DNA from: Acidimicrobiales bacterium
Lineage (GTDB): Bacteria; Actinomycetota; Acidimicrobiia; Acidimicrobiales; CATQHL01
Reading direction: 5' to 3'
Length of the DNA stretch: 64,000 bases
NCBI GenBank assembly: GCA_963668565.2
Contig: CAXXMX010000003.1
Location: forward strand, 8,932-72,931
The position numbers and the translations under genes are program-made. Positions 47,874 through 55,532 of this stretch are shown here, in pieces. How positions within the stretch are numbered: the first letter of the stretch is position 1; each line of letters starts with the position of its first letter. The notes under the pieces are model-generated. The model saw only the letters and a list, made by a program, of their open reading frames with translations. It did not search any database and had not been told where the DNA came from.

Positions 47874-50032
47874 GAGCGCTACGAGGCGTTCTTGAACCCG
47901 GCGGTGGTGAGAGGGCACCGCGTCGGGCTCGTCGCAGCGGGCTGGTTGAAGCTGAGGGCAGCCGGACCCGGGGGACACCGGGGAGGGTGGAAGCAGCCCT
48001 GACAACGACGGGACGCGCCAGCACTGTCAGATGGTGTGGGTCCGGCTAGTGAGACGGAAAGGCGTACGTGAGGAACCAGTGGCTGAACGCCCGTCGAGAG
48101 ATCCAGCAGCTCGAACCTGACGGATCGGGGCTGCGTTGCAACGCGCACCCGGCCATCTTTGGTGGGCGGGGAACTTCTAGATCGGTCGATGTCGCTGGTC
48201 GGGAGGTCGTGGTGAATGCCTGCGGCGTAGCGGTGACGAGGTTGCAGGGGCATAGCTGGGCGCCGACCCCGTCGAAGGGTTCAGGAATGAACGTGGGAAC
48301 CATCTCGTTGGTCCCTGCGCGCTGCCGGGCCAGGGCGGCGGGCGGGAAGACCTGTCGCCGGTTGATGCCGTCGGGATGGGGCGGAGGGTTCGTAGTAGTC
48401 CGGGTACGGGAGAGCCGTGCACATGGCGAAGGGACCCAGTGTGTTCGCAGCTTCAATGCCGAACGGGGAGTCCGCTGGTGAATACCGGCGTTTCGTGGCC
48501 TGGCCTCTTGGAGGCCGAGTCGCGGGTACTCGCGATGCGGTCGAAGCTGCACCAATGGGCGAAGGCCGATCCTGGCCGTTCGTTCGATGACGTGTTCAAC
48601 CTCGTCTATGACCCGGCGTTCCTCGTTGTGGCGTGGAGCCGGGTGCGGGCTAACAAGGGCGCGCGAACCGCCGGCGTCGATGGGATCGCTGCGCGACCCG
48701 TCGTCTTCGGTGTCGAGTCGATGCTGGACGGGCTGCGAGATGATCTCAAAGCTCGCCGGTTCCGCCCCGAGCGGGTGCGGGAGAAGACGATTCCCGAGGC
48801 GAGCGGCAAGGTCCGTTCGTTGGGGATCCCGACTGTTGTTGACCGCGTCGTGCAGGCCTCGTTGAAGCTGGTGCTCGAACCGATCTTCGAGGCGGACTTC
48901 AAACCGTGTTCCTACGGTTTGCGCCCGAAGCGACGGGCCCAGGACGCGATCGCTGAGATTCACTACCTCGGCTCACCCCCCAGGAACTACCACTGGGTGT
49001 TCGAAGCAGATATCAAGGCGTGCTTCGACGAGATCGACCACACCGCCCTCATGGAACGTGTGCGACGTCGAGTCCGAGACAAGCGTGTCGTGGGTCTGGT
49101 GAAGGCGTTCCTCACCGCTGGTGTTCTCGCGGAGGACGCCAGCCGACGAGCAACGATCACCGGCACACCCCAAGGCGGGATCCTCTCGCCGCTGTTGGCC
49201 AATATTGCCCTGTCCGTGCTGGACGAGCACTTCACCCAGAAATGGGAAGCGCTCGGCCCGGAATGGACCCGCGCCAAACGTCGTCGCGCCGGGGAACCGA
49301 CCATGAGGCTCGTCTGTTACGCGGACGACTTCGTGGTCATGGTCCACGGCACCCGCGACGACGCCGAAGCGCTCAGCGATGAGGTCGCAGCGGTGCTCGC
49401 TCCGATGGGGCTGCGCCTCTCGGAAGAGAAAACGAGGGTCCGCCACATCGACGAAGGGTTCGACTTCTTGGGCTGGCGCATCCAGCGCCGGAACCGCAGA
49501 GGCCGCGCTGGCAACAAAGCGATCTACACCTACCCGTCGAAGAAGCCGTTGGCTTCGATCATCGGGAAGATCAGACTGCTGACTCGCCGTCGACGCCATC
49601 GAACGCTTGCAGACCTGCTGCGCCGGCTGAACCCGACGCTGCGGGGCTGGTGCAACTATTTCCGCCACGGCGTGTCAACGCGGACCTTCGGCTATATCGA
49701 TCATTTCGCCTTCTGGCGAATCGTCGGCTGGCTGAAGAAACGCCACGTCGGGCTGAACATGCACACCCTGGTCCGCCGCTACCTCCCACGCTGGAGGATC
49801 CACGACGGCGGCATCGAGATGTTTCGCCCCGAGCGGGTCGCCATCGAGCGCTACCGCTACCGAGGCACCCGCATCCCGACACCATGGACAAGCGTGACAA
49901 CAAGATCACCCGCACCAGCGGCATGACCACACGGAGAGCCCGATGCGGTGAAAGTCGCACGTCCGGTTCGCAGGGCGGGCCGCAGAAACCAGCCGACCGA
50001 AAGACGGCCAGGCGCTGCGGTCCGACCCCTAC
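47874..50032 (+). mobile_element. Group II intron
   Basis: 5' end GAGCG; domain V gagcccgatgcggtgaaagtcgcacgtccggttc at 49936-49969; 3' end ...CCCTAC. Confidence 0.88.
48478..49926 (+). CDS. ltrA: Group II intron reverse transcriptase/maturase without endonuclease domain
   Basis: RSLGIPT, GTPQGGILSPLLANI, YADD, GFDFLG, RGWCNYF. Confidence 0.95.
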   Translation: MNTGVSWPGLLEAESRVLAMRSKLHQWAKADPGRSFDDVFNLVYDPAFLVVAWSRVRANKGARTAGVDGIAARPVVFGVESMLDGLRDDLKARRFRPERVREKTIPEASGKVRSLGIPTVVDRVVQASLKLVLEPIFEADFKPCSYGLRPKRRAQDAIAEIHYLGSPPRNYHWVFEADIKACFDEIDHTALMERVRRRVRDKRVVGLVKAFLTAGVLAEDASRRATITGTPQGGILSPLLANIALSVLDEHFTQKWEALGPEWTRAKRRRAGEPTMRLVCYADDFVVMVHGTRDDAEALSDEVAAVLAPMGLRLSEEKTRVRHIDEGFDFLGWRIQRRNRRGRAGNKAIYTYPSKKPLASIIGKIRLLTRRRRHRTLADLLRRLNPTLRGWCNYFRHGVSTRTFGYIDHFAFWRIVGWLKKRHVGLNMHTLVRRYLPRWRIHDGGIEMFRPERVAIERYRYRGTRIPTPWTSVTTRSPAPAA

Positions 50033-50186: not shown

Positions 50187-50675
50187 ATGGCGGATGCGGT
50201 TCTGGACCAACTCGACTCCCTGGGGCTGGCCTACGAGGTGGTGCCCTGCGACCCCGACCTGGCCGACACGGCGGCGTTCTGCGAGGCCTACGGCTATGCC
50301 GCCGATGACTCGGCCAACGCCATCGTGGTGATCGGCAAGGCCGATCCGCCCAGCTACGTCATATGCCTGGTGCTGTCGTCGACCCGCCTGGACGTGAACC
50401 GTGTGGTGCGCAAGCGGCTGGGCGTGCGCCGGGCGTCGTTCGCCTCGGCGGCCCAGACCATGGAGCTGACCGGCATGGAGATCGGCGGCGTCACGCCGTT
50501 CGGGATCTCCGGCGATCTGCCCGTGTGGGTGGATGCCCGGGTGATGGACCGGTCGGCGGTCATCATCGGCGGCGGTGGCCGGGATCGGAAGCTGCTGGTG
50601 CCGCCGGCCACGATCGCCGGCCATCCCGACGTGACCGTCGTGGAGGATCTGGCGATGCCGCTTCCGACCGGCTGA
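50187..50675 (+). CDS. YbaK/prolyl-tRNA editing domain protein
   Basis: LTGMEIGGVTPFG, IIGGGGR. Confidence 0.85.
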   Translation: MADAVLDQLDSLGLAYEVVPCDPDLADTAAFCEAYGYAADDSANAIVVIGKADPPSYVICLVLSSTRLDVNRVVRKRLGVRRASFASAAQTMELTGMEIGGVTPFGISGDLPVWVDARVMDRSAVIIGGGGRDRKLLVPPATIAGHPDVTVVEDLAMPLPTG

Positions 50676-50762
50676 CCACGGAGCCCGACCGCTCGACGCA
50701 ACTCCCCTCACAGGCACCCTCGCCGGCCTCGAGGGCCGCGCCGGAGAGGCCGTCGGCGAAGC

Positions 50763-51260
50763 TCAGTAGTCCGAAGGGAACAGCACCGTGGTCTGTGAGC
50801 GCACGCCACGCCCGTCCTCGGCCTCGGTGATGATCCACAGCCGCTCGTCGACGATTGCTGCGCTCGAGTCGCGCCCGGCACCGTGGGCCTCGGCGCCCGC
50901 GCCGGCACCAGCGGCGGCCTCCGAGCCGGCCCCGCTTCCGGACTGGTCACCGCCTGCGGTGCGTCGGATCTGCCCGGGGATCGGGTAGCTCGACAGAATT
51001 CTGCCGCCGGTTACGAGAGCCAGATCGTTGGCCTCGGCGTCATGGCTGCCCAGGTCGCCCCAGTCGCCCCGCCCGTGGCGGCGCAGGCACGACATCACGA
51101 AGGCCCGGCCGCTCTCGTGACACATCAACAGCTGGTCCACTGCCCGCGTGACGACGACAATCCCCAGCGGCACCCGCACCTGCCGGTCTGTTCGGCTCGC
51201 AGCATCCCTAGCACCAGGGACGGCGGAATTGATCGGAGGCGACGCGTCTTCTCCCCTCAT
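50763..51260 (-). CDS. Conserved plasmid/ICE-associated hypothetical protein
   Basis: LRRHGRGDWG...RILSSY...LWIITE...TTVLFPSDY motif family; Gly/Ala-rich insert. Confidence 0.6.
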   Translation of the reverse strand: MRGEDASPPINSAVPGARDAASRTDRQVRVPLGIVVVTRAVDQLLMCHESGRAFVMSCLRRHGRGDWGDLGSHDAEANDLALVTGGRILSSYPIPGQIRRTAGGDQSGSGAGSEAAAGAGAGAEAHGAGRDSSAAIVDERLWIITEAEDGRGVRSQTTVLFPSDY

Positions 51261-51393
51261 CCAGCCCGGCACTGCTGTAACGACCGGGCACGGCATCGGG
51301 GAAGCCAACGGGCAGCCTATATGGATATCACTCGACAGTAGCTAACAAGCAACAACGACATCCAATCCAACCCCCGATGCAACGCGCCAATAC

Positions 51394-51458
51394 CCCCACC
51401 GGCAGCCCAGCGCCCCAACGGCAGCCCAGCCCCCCACCGTCAGCCAAGCCCCCCACCG
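51394..51458. repeat. About 19-bp tandem repeat next to the IS110 end
   Basis: About 3.5 copies of cccccaccggcagcccagc. Confidence 0.6.
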
Positions 51459-51473
51459 ATGCTCCTATGTTTG

Positions 51474-52700
51474 TCAAGCGGCTTGTTGGGTGAGCCAGGT
51501 GTGGTAGTGGGTGGCGAGGGTGTGGTTGTGGTGGGTGCCTCGTTCGAGGGCGCTGAGGCGGCTGGTGGGCGTGTTGAGGGTTGCGGCGGCTGCGGTGAGG
51601 GCGATGTTGGCGTTGAGGCGCCGGTGGCGGAGGTCGGCTCCGTGGGGGACCGGTGGCGGGTTGGTGAGGAGCCGGTGGATCTCGCGGGCGATGTGGCGTT
51701 TGAGGCAGCGGATGGTGTCGCGGGTGGTTTTGCCTTCGCTGCGGCGTCGGGCGGCGTAGGCCTGGGTGCGTTCGTCGCAGCGCAAGCGGACCATGGCGAT
51801 GCGCCAGAGGGCTTGGTTGGCGTGGCGGTTTCCGCCGCGGTTGAGTCGGTGGCGGGTGGTTTGGCCGCTGGAGGCGGGGAGGGGGCTGGCGCCGCAGAGG
51901 GCGGCGAAGGATGCGTCGCTGTGGAGGCGGTGGGGGTTGTCGCCGGCGGCGATGAGCAGTGCGGCGGCGGTGTCGGGTCCGACGCCGTGGGCGGCGAGCA
52001 GGGCGGGGTTAGCCGCGGCGCACAGGGCGCGGAGTTCGCCGTCGAGGGCGGCGATCTCGGCGCTGAGCGCCTGGTGGCGCCTGGCGAGGCTGCGCAGCGC
52101 CCGTTTGGCGGCGCCGATGAGCGCGTCGGTGGTGGAGTTGGGGCGCAGGCGGGCGCAGGAGTCGATGAGGGCGCCGCCGCGCAGACCTCCGAGCTGGTCT
52201 TTGAGCGTCTCGGGGGCGGTGACGAGCAGGCCGTGGATCTGGTTGTGCGCCTGAGTGCGGGCCTTGAGCGCCGAGCGCCGCGCGACGGTGAGCATGCGGA
52301 TCGCCTCGACGGGGCCGTTGTGGGCTTTGGGGACGGCGGTGGCGTGCCCGGCGAGGGCGCCGCGCGCCGCGGCTTCGGCGTCGACGGTGTCGGACTTGCC
52401 GGCGCGGCGGCGCATTTGGCGGTTGGGACGATTCACCTCCACCACCTCGACGCTCGCCGCGGCGAGGTGGCGCGCCAAGCCGGCGCCGTAGCTGCCGGTG
52501 CCTTCGACGCCGACACGGCGCACGGGACCCCACGTGGCCAACCAGGCGGCCAGCTCGCCGTAACCGGCGGCGTTCGCCGCGAACGACGCCGTCGCCAACA
52601 GCGCCCCGGTGGCATCAACAGCGGCGGCGACATGGACATCACGATGGGTGTCGACCCCGCCGACGATCTCAGAACCACTACAGGTGTGCTTCTCGGACAT
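51474..52700 (-). CDS. IS110 recombinase A with C-terminal HTH-like extension
   Basis: GVDTH, VEGTGSYG, KSDTVDA (DEDD); ASSG..RHRLNRGGNR; AGGAGG RBS. Confidence 0.95.
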   Translation of the reverse strand: MSEKHTCSGSEIVGGVDTHRDVHVAAAVDATGALLATASFAANAAGYGELAAWLATWGPVRRVGVEGTGSYGAGLARHLAAASVEVVEVNRPNRQMRRRAGKSDTVDAEAAARGALAGHATAVPKAHNGPVEAIRMLTVARRSALKARTQAHNQIHGLLVTAPETLKDQLGGLRGGALIDSCARLRPNSTTDALIGAAKRALRSLARRHQALSAEIAALDGELRALCAAANPALLAAHGVGPDTAAALLIAAGDNPHRLHSDASFAALCGASPLPASSGQTTRHRLNRGGNRHANQALWRIAMVRLRCDERTQAYAARRRSEGKTTRDTIRCLKRHIAREIHRLLTNPPPVPHGADLRHRRLNANIALTAAAATLNTPTSRLSALERGTHHNHTLATHYHTWLTQQAA

Positions 52701-52809
52701 AATGGTGCGGCCCTCCTTGGACAACCAACCGATACAGGGCACCACCGGCCGCGACGGCGGACAGGACACTCACGGTGCTGGACTCAAGGCTCCTGACTTG
52801 TTGGAATGG

Positions 52810-53000
52810 GGCCAGCACCCCGGTCCCGACGGGGACGTAGGGTGCGAGGTCGGTGACCGGTTGGGCTCTCACGCTCCTTGCCCACTTCGGTGTGGCTCTC
52901 TCATAGCGTGTCCGGCCGGTCGCCGCCCGCTGCGGCGTGGCTCAATAGAGGCGTGATCGTTTCCTGAATTCAGGTTGCCCGCCGTGGAACCCATTGTTCG
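52810..53000 (+). ncRNA. Predicted bridge RNA of IS110-B
   Basis: Stem 52855-52864/52912-52921 encloses GCTCCT and ATAG (target match); stem 52930-52941/52977-52987 encloses ATAGAGGCG and TCAG (donor match); ends approximate. Confidence 0.7.
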
Positions 53001-53020
53001 GCAACCACGAGGAGCGACAA

Positions 53021-54062
53021 ATGACGATCGTTATCGGTATCGACCCGCACAAGGCTTCCCACACGGCGACCGCGATCGGTCCCGGGTCCGTCGAGGCCGC
53101 CACGATCAGGCTGCGAGCGGCCCGCTCGACACCGCAGGAGTTGTTGAGCTGGGCGGCCCGGTGGCCCGAGCGTCGCTGGGCGATTGAAGGCGCCCGCGGC
53201 CTGGGCCAGTTGCTGGCCCAGCAACTCGTCGCCGCCGGCGAGCATGTTGTCGATGTGCCCGCCTCGCTGTCGGCGCGGGTGCGGACCCTCGACACGGGCC
53301 ACGGCCGCAAGACCGACCGCATCGACGCCGCCGCGGTCGCGCTCGTCGCCACACAGCGCCCCGATCTGCCCCGCGTCGCCGCGGACGATCACCACTGCGT
53401 GCTGCGGCTGTTGTCGGATCGGCGCGACGAGCTGACCAGGGAACGGCGCCGCACGATCAACCGGCTGCACCGACACCTGCGCGACCTGATCGCCGGCGGC
53501 GCGCCAACCCAGCTCAGCGCCAAGACCGCCGCAGGACTACTCGCCAAAGTCCGCCCCCGAGACGGCGTCGAAGCCGAACGCAAGCAGATAGCCCGAAACC
53601 TCCTCGCCGACGTGCGGCGCCTCGACGGCGCCCTCGCGGAGAACCGGCGCCGCTGCGTAGCCGCCGTCGCCGCCAGCGGCACCACCCTGACCCACCTCGC
53701 CGGGATCAGCGACGTGCTCGCCGCCAAAAATCTCCGGCCACATCGGCGACATCGGCCGGTTCCCCAGCGCCGACCACCTCGCCAGCTACGCGGGCACCGC
53801 GCCCATCGAAGCCAGCAGCGGCGACGTCATCCGTCACCGACTGTCCCGACGCGGCAACCGCCAACTCAACAACGCCATCTACCTCGCCGCCCACACCCAG
53901 ACCATCCGCCCCGGCCCCGGCCGCGACTACTACCAACGCCGACGCGACGCCGGCAACAGCCGCAACGAAGCCCTCCGAGCGCTCAAACGACAACTCACCA
54001 AAACCATCTACCGCACCCTCACCGCCGACGCCGCCCGCGCCCACCACAACGCCGCGACTTGA
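53021..54062 (+). pseudogene. IS110 recombinase B with a +1 frameshift
   Basis: GIDPHK, IEG, KTDRIDA; shift at A5 run 53726-53730; other frame continues GTAPIEASSG...RGNRQLN to TGA 54062. Confidence 0.88.
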
Positions 54063-54074
54063 CATAGAGGCGCT

Positions 54075-54207
54075 ATCAGGTCACGTCCGTCCGACCGGTC
54101 GGTGCGCGTCCCCGACCAGCAACGGGCCGACAGATCGGACGAGAGGCACCACGGCCAGCATTCCAGCGAGTCAGACCCACCACCAACCGGGGACCCACAC
54201 AGTATGA
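54075..54207 (-). ncRNA. Displaced 5' half of the IS110-A non-coding end (putative bridge RNA)
   Basis: Joins 52701-52794 across the CT core to give gtgacctgATAGGAGCcttgag; ATAGGAGC equals the IS110-A right-end sequence. Confidence 0.6.
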
Positions 54208-54209
54208 AT

Positions 54210-54236
54210 GTCATTCCGGCGAAGGCCGGAATCCAG
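54210..54236. repeat. REP-like palindrome abutting IS110-A
   Basis: gtcattccggcgaaggccggaatccag. Confidence 0.8.
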
Positions 54237-54292
54237 AATCAAGCGCTCCCACCGGCGCCTGCCATCGGCTGCTCAGCACACTCCCAGGCCCG

Positions 54293-55471
54293 CTAGACCC
54301 AGATGTGCATGGGGTAGCCGGTTTCGTCGTGCTCGCCGGCGCCCAGGCAGTCGGCCTCGCCGGCGACGATGCGCCGGGCGGTCCAGGCGGCGGCCGCCGC
54401 ATCCAGAAGGTCGTCGAGACCCGGTCTCGGCGGCCCTGGCGGAGGCGCAGAGACGGCCACCTCCGCGATGTTCGGGAACGCCTCGCCGAGTACGTCCAGC
54501 CGCTCCTGCTCGCCTGCCGGTTTGCGCTTGGAGACCGACATTGGCTCGCCGGCCAGGCGCACGAAGCTGCTCTCCGGATGCACCTCGACTGCTCGGGGCC
54601 GGGCGTCCGGAGCGAAGTCGTCGGGCTCCAGCGCTTCCCGCAGTTCGCGGATCTTGGGCACCAGGTTGAAGGCCTGCGCCGAGATGCCCCGGCCTGTCTC
54701 GTCCCACGACCGCCGGTTGGCTTCGGCATGTCCAGCGGCATCCACGACGCACAGCGGTGGTGTCCAGAACAGCGACGACCGCCGCGCCCCGAGCAGCCGG
54801 TGTGCCTCGAGGTCCGCCTCACGCCTCTCCGCTCCCGGCAATCCGGCGGGCATGTCGACCGCCACCACGAGCAACCGCCGCGCCCGTGCCACCGACCACA
54901 GGTCTCCGAGCGTGGGCCGCACCAGGAACTCCACCGGCGACCCGCCGGCAACACCGGTGACGGCCATGACCCAGCCACCTGACACGCCGTCCACGCCGCC
55001 CACGAGCGCCGGACCGGCAGTGGGCCGGGCGGGCGCTCTCCCCGACGGCGTCGGGGCTTGTCCCCAGGGGCTTGTCACGGCGACGTCAAGCCCGTCGAAG
55101 TCACGCACGTTGCGCGTTGCGACCGTCAGGTCGTGCGCCTTGGCGGTTCCGGCAATGAATGCATCACCGGCGTGGGGCACGTGGCCAGCCAGCCGCGCCT
55201 GAGCCCTCAGTCGCGCCGCCCACTCGGCCTCTCGACGCCCCAGCGGCAGGATGCGGTCGCCGAATTCCGACGTGAACTCCTCAAGTGTGCGTCGCAGGCC
55301 GTCACGACGGTGACCGTGCGGCAGGAGTTCCAGACCGAACTCCAACTCGTGCAGGACCACCGACGACAGCCACAAGTCATCGTGTTCGGAGAGGAAGTTC
55401 AGCACCCCCACCGCCGGTGAAGCTTTCGTCAGTTCCGAGATCACGTTGGTGTCGAGGAGGTAACCGCTCAT
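54293..55471 (-). CDS. PIN/VapC domain fused to a DUF429 RNase H-like domain
   Basis: YLLDTNVISE...DAFIAGTA...TRNVRDF, then GVDGVSGGW, VDMPAGL, EVHPE, DDLLDA with no stop. Confidence 0.8.
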   Translation of the reverse strand: MSGYLLDTNVISELTKASPAVGVLNFLSEHDDLWLSSVVLHELEFGLELLPHGHRRDGLRRTLEEFTSEFGDRILPLGRREAEWAARLRAQARLAGHVPHAGDAFIAGTAKAHDLTVATRNVRDFDGLDVAVTSPWGQAPTPSGRAPARPTAGPALVGGVDGVSGGWVMAVTGVAGGSPVEFLVRPTLGDLWSVARARRLLVVAVDMPAGLPGAERREADLEAHRLLGARRSSLFWTPPLCVVDAAGHAEANRRSWDETGRGISAQAFNLVPKIRELREALEPDDFAPDARPRAVEVHPESSFVRLAGEPMSVSKRKPAGEQERLDVLGEAFPNIAEVAVSAPPPGPPRPGLDDLLDAAAAAWTARRIVAGEADCLGAGEHDETGYPMHIWV

Positions 55472-55532
55472 CGGCGCGAGTCCTGGTGCGAGTACGCCGG
55501 CATTGGCACGCCCGTCTCGAGGAGGTTGCCGC

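Follow-up and report, generated by a model that had tools for sequence, protein, structure and literature searches.

The window analyzed here, a stretch of 64,000 nucleotides (nt) from an Acidimicrobiales genome, carries two insertion sequences (IS) of the IS110 group, one nested inside the other on opposite strands, with their transposase genes head to head. The inner element, IS110-B (hereafter B), interrupts the outer one, IS110-A (A), within the segment that appears to specify the left donor guide of A's bridge RNA, and relatives of B occupy the equivalent position in IS110 elements of other genomes. The features of the two elements are as follows.

52795-54074, plus strand: IS110-B, 1280 bp including the 3' copy of its CT core at 54073-54074; four further copies in the genome share its end bases, and it is missing at the twin locus described below
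52795-53020, plus strand: left non-coding end of B, the predicted bridge RNA gene (consensus fold and flank matches)
52815-52845, plus strand: stem-loop in the left end of B (consensus fold)
52870-52878, plus strand: predicted left target guide of B, CACGCTCCT, in the first internal loop of the fold and matching the flanks
52879-52896, plus strand: inner hairpin between the two target guides of B
52900-52906, plus strand: predicted right target guide of B, CTCATAG, in the first internal loop of the fold and matching the flanks
52945-52953, plus strand: predicted left donor guide of B, ATAGAGGCG, equal to the right end of B
52969-52974, plus strand: possible right donor guide of B, within TTCAGG
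53021-54062, plus strand: transposase gene of B, disrupted by a single additional A in the run at 53726-53730
54059-54074, plus strand: right end of B, TTGACATAGAGGCG plus CT, read directly
51461-54209, minus strand: whole of IS110-A, interrupted by B, on the strand opposite to it
54075-54209, minus strand: outer part of the left non-coding end of A, running from the terminus ATTCATACTG up to where B is inserted; the alignment of five A-family copies starts here, and the empty copy at C10:1427589-1427818 has this part joined to the rest of A
51461-52794, minus strand: inner part of A, comprising the remainder of the donor-binding loop, the transposase gene and the right end of 13 nt
51477-52700, minus strand: transposase of A, 408 amino acids, open reading frame intact (PF01548, E 5e-24; PF02371, E 3e-18; NF033542, 188 bits against a cut-off of 140)
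51461-51468, minus strand: right terminus of A, ATAGGAGC (left donor), within 13 nt past the stop codon and invariant in copies A1, A2, A3 and A5
52789-52794, minus strand: 3' part, AGGAGC, of the putative left donor guide of A, whose 5' part, AT, lies at 54075-54076
52767-52773, minus strand: GTGAGTG, a candidate right donor guide for A that is complementary to the core and the start of the A left end, found by eye in the alignment
54158-54165, minus strand: candidate left target guide of A, TGGAATGC, placed by aligned position, with a match of only about 6-7 to the flank of A1

The limits of B are fixed by direct reading and by script. CT stands before the element at 52793-52794 and again as its final two bases, as the initial annotation of this DNA had described for an element lying inside an opposite-strand IS110. 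The sequence to the left of B is ..GGCTCCT (52788-52794) and that to the right is ATCAGGTCAC (54075-54084); on the A strand the site reads GTGACCTGAT followed by AGGAGCC, with B between the two. The nesting itself was recognized correctly at the outset, whereas the ends of A are better placed at 51461 and 54209. The run at 53726-53730 has five A in the window copy and four in the intact copy at C10:851157-852435, which encodes 346 amino acids; the window copy of B is therefore dead. The intact 346-residue B transposase from elsewhere in the genome (locus L020:1727-2764) scores, like that of A, above the Pfam cut-offs for both PF01548 and PF02371 and reaches 175 bits with NF033542, the NCBIfam model of IS110 family RNA-guided transposases (cut-off 140). 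Both A and B thus combine a DEDD/RuvC-like N-terminal domain (PF01548) and a C-terminal Tnp_20 domain (PF02371) with a long non-coding end upstream of the gene. In B the non-coding parts measure 226 nt upstream of the transposase gene and 12 nt past its stop codon; a long upstream region, a 12-nt right end and no evident subterminal repeats set it apart from the IS1111 group. Terminal inverted repeats are not evident in the ends of A and B as read, no formal search having been made.

The left end of B has the layout expected of a bridge RNA gene. In a consensus fold of 33 B-family left ends, the two predicted target guides form the two sides of the first internal loop: CACGCTCCT lies about 70 nt before the donor guide ATAGAGGCG and is followed by the hairpin and then by CTCATAG. 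The donor guide matches the right end of B over the 9 nt leading up to CT, the core itself being unmatched. The right end also contains TTGACA, which across a circle junction would lie 17 nt from TGGAAT (52802-52807) and by analogy could act as the -35 box of a circle-junction promoter.

To describe A, five A-family copies were aligned after B had been sliced out. The element begins with A[C/T]TCATA (position 54209 in the window) and finishes with TTGACAAACATAGGAGC (51461); with B removed, its non-coding parts are about 230 nt upstream of the transposase gene and 13 nt past the stop codon. TTGACA at 51472-51477 precedes the right terminus, so this box is present in the right ends of both elements. 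The terminal octamer ATAGGAGC recurs in the left end exactly at the B site and is invariant in the five copies, whose overall identity is only 68-74%. The consensus fold of the hosts places the recurring motif on the 5' side of the second internal loop, which GGCGGA...UCCGCC closes. In the IS621-type bridge RNA as described by Durrant et al. (2024, PMC11208160), the second loop recognizes the donor and carries the left donor guide on its 5' side, while pairing of the 3' loop side with the top strand spans 4-7 nt; the position of ATAGGAGC in the fold agrees with this description and therefore fits a left donor guide. The candidate right donor guide covaries with the end that it would pair with, being GTGAATG in A2, whose left end is ATTCA, and GTGAGTG in A3, A4 and A5, which have ACTCA. 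At the aligned position of the candidate left target guide, A4 has GAGGCTTCGC and A5 has GGCACCAAC, matching their own left flanks at 10 of 10 and 9 of 9 positions, respectively; this segment therefore behaves as a left target guide should. The 54075-54209 part of A is predicted to hold A's loop for target binding, together with the 5' edge of the donor-binding loop. In silico, both elements have a predicted two-loop bridge RNA whose 5' and 3' sides match half-sites. Since AGGAGC and AT fall on opposite sides of B, the putative left donor guide of A is split by the insertion. The last two bases of ATAGGAGC, GC, are probably the A core, AT being the alternative.

An unoccupied version of the site exists in the same assembly. 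The contig of the window (C3, 82.6 kb) is about 99% identical to a twin region, C10:1408261-1533319, in which the A copy (A2) is 97% identical to window A and uninterrupted, with the B flanks adjacent at C10:1427725 and 1427724 and a single CT between the arms. CT at both junctions of B and a single CT in the empty site identify it as the core, as initially proposed. Uninterrupted A-family copies also occur on contig C9 (70% identical), again in this genome, and in two further genomes of the genus (L010 and L011; 83%), and the empty copies contain the joined site, contrary to the possibility, raised at the outset, that intact A copies might lack it. Joins across B also appear in short contigs of three public DNA runs, with an exact 1280-nt skip in X8 and with skips and 13-15 other letters in X1 and X5. 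All four public runs used here consist of short assembled contigs from mixed communities, and these DNA joins show only that empty A-family sites exist there. The fourth, a metatranscriptome, has contigs over 52828-53060 and over the outer left end of A, whereas the remaining parts of both elements have none, a lack of cover that carries no weight in such contigs. The covered parts give a weak hint that the left end of B is transcribed, from contigs that cannot be tied to this copy. The differences between C3 and its twin include a gap of about 42 kb and the presence or absence of IS, and the pair could reflect a large duplication, or else a second haplotype or strain present in the assembly; contamination of the genome is estimated at 7.7%. 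The transposase gene of A2 (C10:1427819-1429041) has a 1-nt deletion that shifts the frame near residue 313-318, while the reading frame of the B-occupied window A (51477-52700) is intact.

This genome has five copies of B, which form two subfamilies: identity is 98.9-99.7% among members of one, 97.8% in the other and 88-90% from one subfamily to the other. At the right junction, each of the five adjoins an A-type left-end fragment, and of the four that retain a left end, three also adjoin A sequence on that side. The initial annotation had allowed that other B copies might lie mostly at sites unrelated to A, which is not the case: every copy in the genome abuts an A-family left end. The hosts A1 and A3 are 74% identical, their B copies 98.9%. 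A 12-mer pattern describing the site occurs, outside the occupied sites, only twice in 3.77 Mb, and one of these occurrences is the empty A2. Because all five copies adjoin A-type ends and the pattern is so rare, chance is excluded as an explanation for the position of B.

One of the five copies, B5 (C10:2139379-2140657), has a host left end as its right flank and unrelated DNA as its left flank (2140658-2140668), and the same is seen at loci L157, L150 and L177 in other genomes. The left flank of B5, CACGCTTCT, is identical to B5's own variant target guide, CACGCTTCT, at 11 of 11 positions, and that of L157 matches its guide at 9 of 9. Such copies look like secondary rearrangements at a half-site that matches the left guide only, for which half-match recombination described for IS621 in a preprint (bioRxiv 10.64898/2026.08.31.748434) offers a parallel. 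That the left flank of B5 is the left end of a third IS110 element was considered and ruled out: the match extends over only 11 nt and the flank is unique non-IS DNA. The surrounding region, C10:2135500-2143000, is an IS graveyard in which two inverted A left-end fragments, each with a B copy, surround 1.15 kb of unique DNA; one B copy is cut by another IS, and several other multi-copy IS lie nearby.

The association extends well beyond this genome. A wider census, comprising two collection scans with patterns drawn only from inside B together with loci from genomes of the genus, yielded 42 B-family instances outside this genome. These sort into 32 flank groups, 30 of them informative, according to the 31 nt lying upstream of the shared motif. 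Fuzzy searching for B left ends gave mostly noise and was replaced by an anchored search; the scan with the 16-nt right end of B gave 113 loci, of which only 18 are real B-family ends and the rest chance 16-mers. An IS110 host is present in 19 of the 30 informative groups. In 17 of these an opposite-strand IS110 transposase gene starts about 72-120 nt from the junction, which places B in the donor loop; in the other two (L158 with L152/L174, and L165) the host C-terminus lies 28-35 nt past the right end of B, corresponding to insertion in the host right terminus. B always lies in the same orientation and at the same base relative to its host, and 13-14 of the 18 right ends from the genome collection are followed by AT-N-A-R-G-Y-CAC. 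Judging by record titles, the B family spans Acidimicrobiia, several classes of Chloroflexota and Dormiibacterota. Its hosts are diverse, with transposases of either 34-65% amino-acid identity to that of A or 38-42% to that of B. Within the genus, genome G012 carries two copies of B beside A-like hosts, which are 76% and 68% identical to A, and the hosts in genomes G017 and G007 are uninterrupted.

Two further observations concern relatives of B within the genus. Remnants of the B left end, 44-46 nt long and cut at the same place, occur in genome G014 (L008; 44 nt) beside an A-like host and with the flank seen at L002, and in genome G011 (L023) beside the flank CACGCTTCT. Genome G016 contains at least 10 identical copies (for example L004 and L022) of an IS110 element with 66% identity to B across 880 nt; the two copies examined have no A-like sequence next to them, and this relative presumably has a different address.

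The hosts found in the census also bear on the identity of the donor guide. In all 17 hosts elsewhere in which it could be tested, the octamer at the B site recurs as the right terminus of the host, directly after TTGAC(N0-5), at a distance of about 1.1-1.3 kb (468 nt in the truncated host of L127). Three of the 17 carry a variant octamer at both places, ATAGGAAC in L002 and L164 and ATAGGAGG in L086; the hosts of L149 and L154 end in ACAGGAGC. The identity of the two octamers, including the three covarying variants, supports the initial identification of ATAGGAGC as the left donor guide of A, where it likewise equals the right terminus in A1, A2, A3 and A5 and lies on the 5' side of the second loop.

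The predicted target guides of B match these sites. Across hosts, the left guide agrees with the left half-site at 6-9 of 9 positions and the right guide with the right half-site at 6-7 of 7, in keeping with the early proposal that B is programmed against the donor motif of the A family. CACGCTCCT reads like the left half-site plus CT, and CTCATAG is the complement of CT plus ATGAG; at L105 the flank matches the B guide at 9 of 9 positions. At L002 the B guide is CACGTTCCT, the flank GGTTCCT and the host motif ATAGGAAC, so that the guide of B has changed along with its host. This case also qualifies the argument that A cannot easily mutate the motif, which is only partly right: three hosts have changed both of their copies, and at L002 the guide of B changed with them. 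The donor loop of B itself shares 14 of 19 positions with its target and differs at 5, including next to the core, and this difference near the core would keep B from hitting itself.

The insertions are independent of one another. Fourteen pairs of B and host with full sequence allow 91 pairwise comparisons, and in 90 of these the B copies are more alike than their hosts (means 74.7% and 52.8%), which is the ground for this conclusion. The contrast is 96.6% for B against 44% for the hosts in L164/L169, and it is seen again in L151/L153 (94.6% against 53%) and between the window copy and that at C10:851k (98.9% against 73.7%). The sole exception is A3/A4, with hosts 95.8% and B copies 89.2% identical; since the hosts are here more alike than the B copies, this pair also argues against co-descent. 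On these sequence comparisons a single ancestral composite is excluded.

On the basis of these observations, we consider it highly probable that B is an IS110-group element specialized on the donor-guide site of other IS110 elements, which it would reach by ordinary bridge-RNA-guided recombination at a CT core. The explanation builds on what is directly observed, namely the anatomy of B, the recurrence and independence of its insertions, their site, orientation and core, and the matches between guides and sites; by analogy with IS621, the loops would act as guides. The target loop of the B bridge RNA, with left guide CACGCUCCU and right guide CUCAUAG, would specify an address of approximately CA-N-GCTC, then CT, then AT-G/C-A-G/A-G. 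The opposite strand of this address would correspond to the left donor guide, AUAGGAGC, and a few neighboring donor-loop bases in a broad set of IS110 elements. Hosts must carry the same octamer at the right terminus, and therefore B would land mostly in the bridge RNA gene and occasionally in the right end. The insertion would cut the bridge RNA gene of A within the donor guide and put 1.28 kb between the left terminus plus target loop and the donor loop plus transposase gene. With the gene split and its parts so separated, A should be disabled in cis while both termini are kept, as its anatomy suggests. The specificity of the address may have been selected as a neutral multi-copy landing site, for the suppression of a competitor, or for both.

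Several findings weigh against this explanation. Guide matches at typical host sites are imperfect, those in the window covering 7 of 9 positions of the left half-site and 6 of 7 of the right, and the empty A2 is the better match on the right side (7 of 7) and yet unoccupied; the B guides at L164 and L086 have not changed with the variant motif of the host. Eleven of the 30 informative flank groups have no visible IS110 host: five lack right flank sequence, three (L150, L157 and L177) have a host-like right flank only, and three (L094, L163 and L170) have neither. The address of B is therefore a sequence motif and not IS110 elements as such. The core dinucleotide of A is ambiguous between GC and AT, and the B copy of the window carries a frameshift. 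The fold of the B left end rests on energy and conservation, with compensatory change in only 3 of 43 pairs, because the B family is very conserved. A scan of 50500-55500 against Rfam at E values up to 1 returned no matches, the presence of a bridge RNA model in Rfam 15 being unconfirmed.

The strongest of the alternatives retains the same mechanism and regards the motif only as a neutral safe harbor, used like a repetitive extragenic palindromic (REP) sequence because it is multi-copy and harmless to the cell, without antagonism, co-evolution or hitch-hiking. IS110 and IS1111 elements have been described as commonly targeting repeats and the recombination sites of other mobile elements (Durrant et al. 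2024; Siddiquee et al. 2024), about a third of the B-family flank groups lie outside IS110 hosts, and the guide of B failed to track the change in two of the three variant hosts. Nor do A3::B3 and A4::B4, the one pair able to show it, give any sign of A::B composites riding as mobile units, although such riding, considered from the outset, may still occur. Against neutrality, the site is the sole part of the host that must stay matched to the host's own terminus, it is conserved over very divergent hosts, and at L002 the host terminus, host guide and B guide all share the same change; moreover, a host that is occupied loses its bridge RNA, and for the host element the interaction therefore cannot be neutral. 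We regard the purely neutral interpretation as a serious contender that nevertheless falls short of an even chance.

Going further in the opposite direction, B might be an old, multi-phylum hyperparasitic lineage living on IS110 elements, its target guide directed at the single sequence that a host could alter only together with its own terminus. Hosts would escape by paired changes such as ATAGGAAC and ATAGGAGG, which the B guides would follow, as at L002, in an arms race fought at sequence level between two RNA-guided mobile elements. Occupied hosts with intact termini could carry B if mobilized in trans, and the left target guide of B, being complementary to the host donor guide as RNA, might interfere with the host bridge RNA. 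This extension is tentative, and we consider it somewhat doubtful.

Two other explanations are very improbable. In the first, B entered one ancestral A a single time, and the A::B composite then spread and diverged as a unit, as might be supposed from the similar divergence in a few pairs (L131/L166, B 84.5% and host 82.3%) and from the identical orientation and base of every B insertion; this is contradicted by the greater likeness of B than of hosts in all comparisons but one and the reverse relation in the remaining pair, by the empty twin locus of the window, by the diversity of the hosts, and by the occurrence of B at host right termini and outside any IS110 element. In the second, B would find the site through its donor loop, by a donor-like half-match recombination of the kind reported in the IS621 preprint, since the host guide DNA ATAGGAGCG resembles the B donor end ATAGAGGCG (7 of 9 bases shared) and the donor loops are homologous (14 of 19); it was rejected on junction position and orientation, because such a reaction would cross over after the motif and leave B in host orientation, whereas the actual crossover lies within the motif, between AT and AG, with B always on the opposite strand, as the CT core of a target-loop reaction predicts, and the left flanks follow the target-guide variants (T variants in L002 and B5).

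The surroundings of A contain further repeats. Directly outside its left end lies the following feature.

54212-54233 (core), no strand assigned: REP-like hairpin repeat in the target neighborhood of A itself, with more than 30 near-identical copies of 26-30 nt in the genome

A1 and A2 may have targeted the edge of this repeat. The hairpin region (54208-54290) has by far the highest contig depth in the metatranscriptome, about 290-300. The right end of A adjoins a tandem repeat with a unit of about 20 nt, GGTGGGGGGCT.GGCTGAC (51380-51458), which has one unit fewer than its counterpart in the twin region (C10:1429060-1429120). Farther away, an open reading frame of 516 amino acids on the plus strand (48376-49926) resembles a group II intron reverse transcriptase/maturase, as judged by eye from a YADD-type motif.

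Among characterized systems, B is closest in organization to IS621, which has a CT core and a REP sequence as its natural address (Durrant et al. 2024, PMC11208160). Like IS621 as portrayed in that work, B has DEDD and Tnp_20 domains, a long upstream non-coding end, a short right end with TTGACA, and CT at both junctions; its predicted RNA has two internal loops, with a 5' side that is the same as the top strand of the left half-site and a 3' side complementary to the right half-site, and the donor guide equals the right end of the element. Unlike the IS621 of that account, B has as its address the donor-guide segment of another IS110's bridge RNA gene or the right terminus of that element, here known from sequence alone, and its left donor guide matches the 9 nt up to the core and not the core itself. 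IS4321 and IS5075, of the IS1111 group, resemble B in targeting the recombination site of another mobile element, the ends of Tn21-family transposons, which they are expected to cripple. They differ from it in having subterminal inverted repeats and a downstream non-coding region (encoding the seekRNA), and their hosts are Tn3-family transposons recognized by protein, whereas the host of B is itself RNA-guided and the sequence struck is its guide. ISKpn4 and ISPst6, which target integron attC sites, and ISPa11, which targets REP (Siddiquee et al. 2024, PMC11187229), share with B an RNA-specified insertion into conserved multi-copy sites, some of them belonging to other mobile systems; as presented there, they are members of the IS1111 group and their targets are folded recombination sites or repeats, not the guide-RNA gene of a related transposon. 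A literature search found no account of an IS110 element aimed at the bridge RNA gene of another IS110; natural targets are tabulated in the supplements to Durrant et al. (2024) and to the 2026 preprints, which lay outside its coverage and may hold cases. Mechanistically, B is an ordinary IS110-group element of the IS621 type, and its novelty is its address.

The bridge recombinases of IS110 elements attract intense research as programmable tools for genome editing, and the natural targets usually named for them are repeats, for example REP. Work by Hiraizumi and colleagues from 2024 reportedly also deals with IS621 and the bridge recombinases of the IS110 group. We know of no earlier case of one RNA-guided transposon programmed against the guide of another. 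The B lineage would find its natural target in DNA that encodes the guides of other bridge-recombinase elements and in the terminus that matches, which makes it of interest both for work on bridge recombinases and for studies of conflict among mobile elements. It offers a natural test bed for the specificity of target loop versus donor loop, for self-avoidance and for half-site recombination. For annotation it carries a warning, in that head-to-head pairs of IS110 genes may be nested, and pipelines that call element boundaries may mis-assign guides and targets. For the IS110 family itself, B-like elements may represent a natural brake on proliferation.

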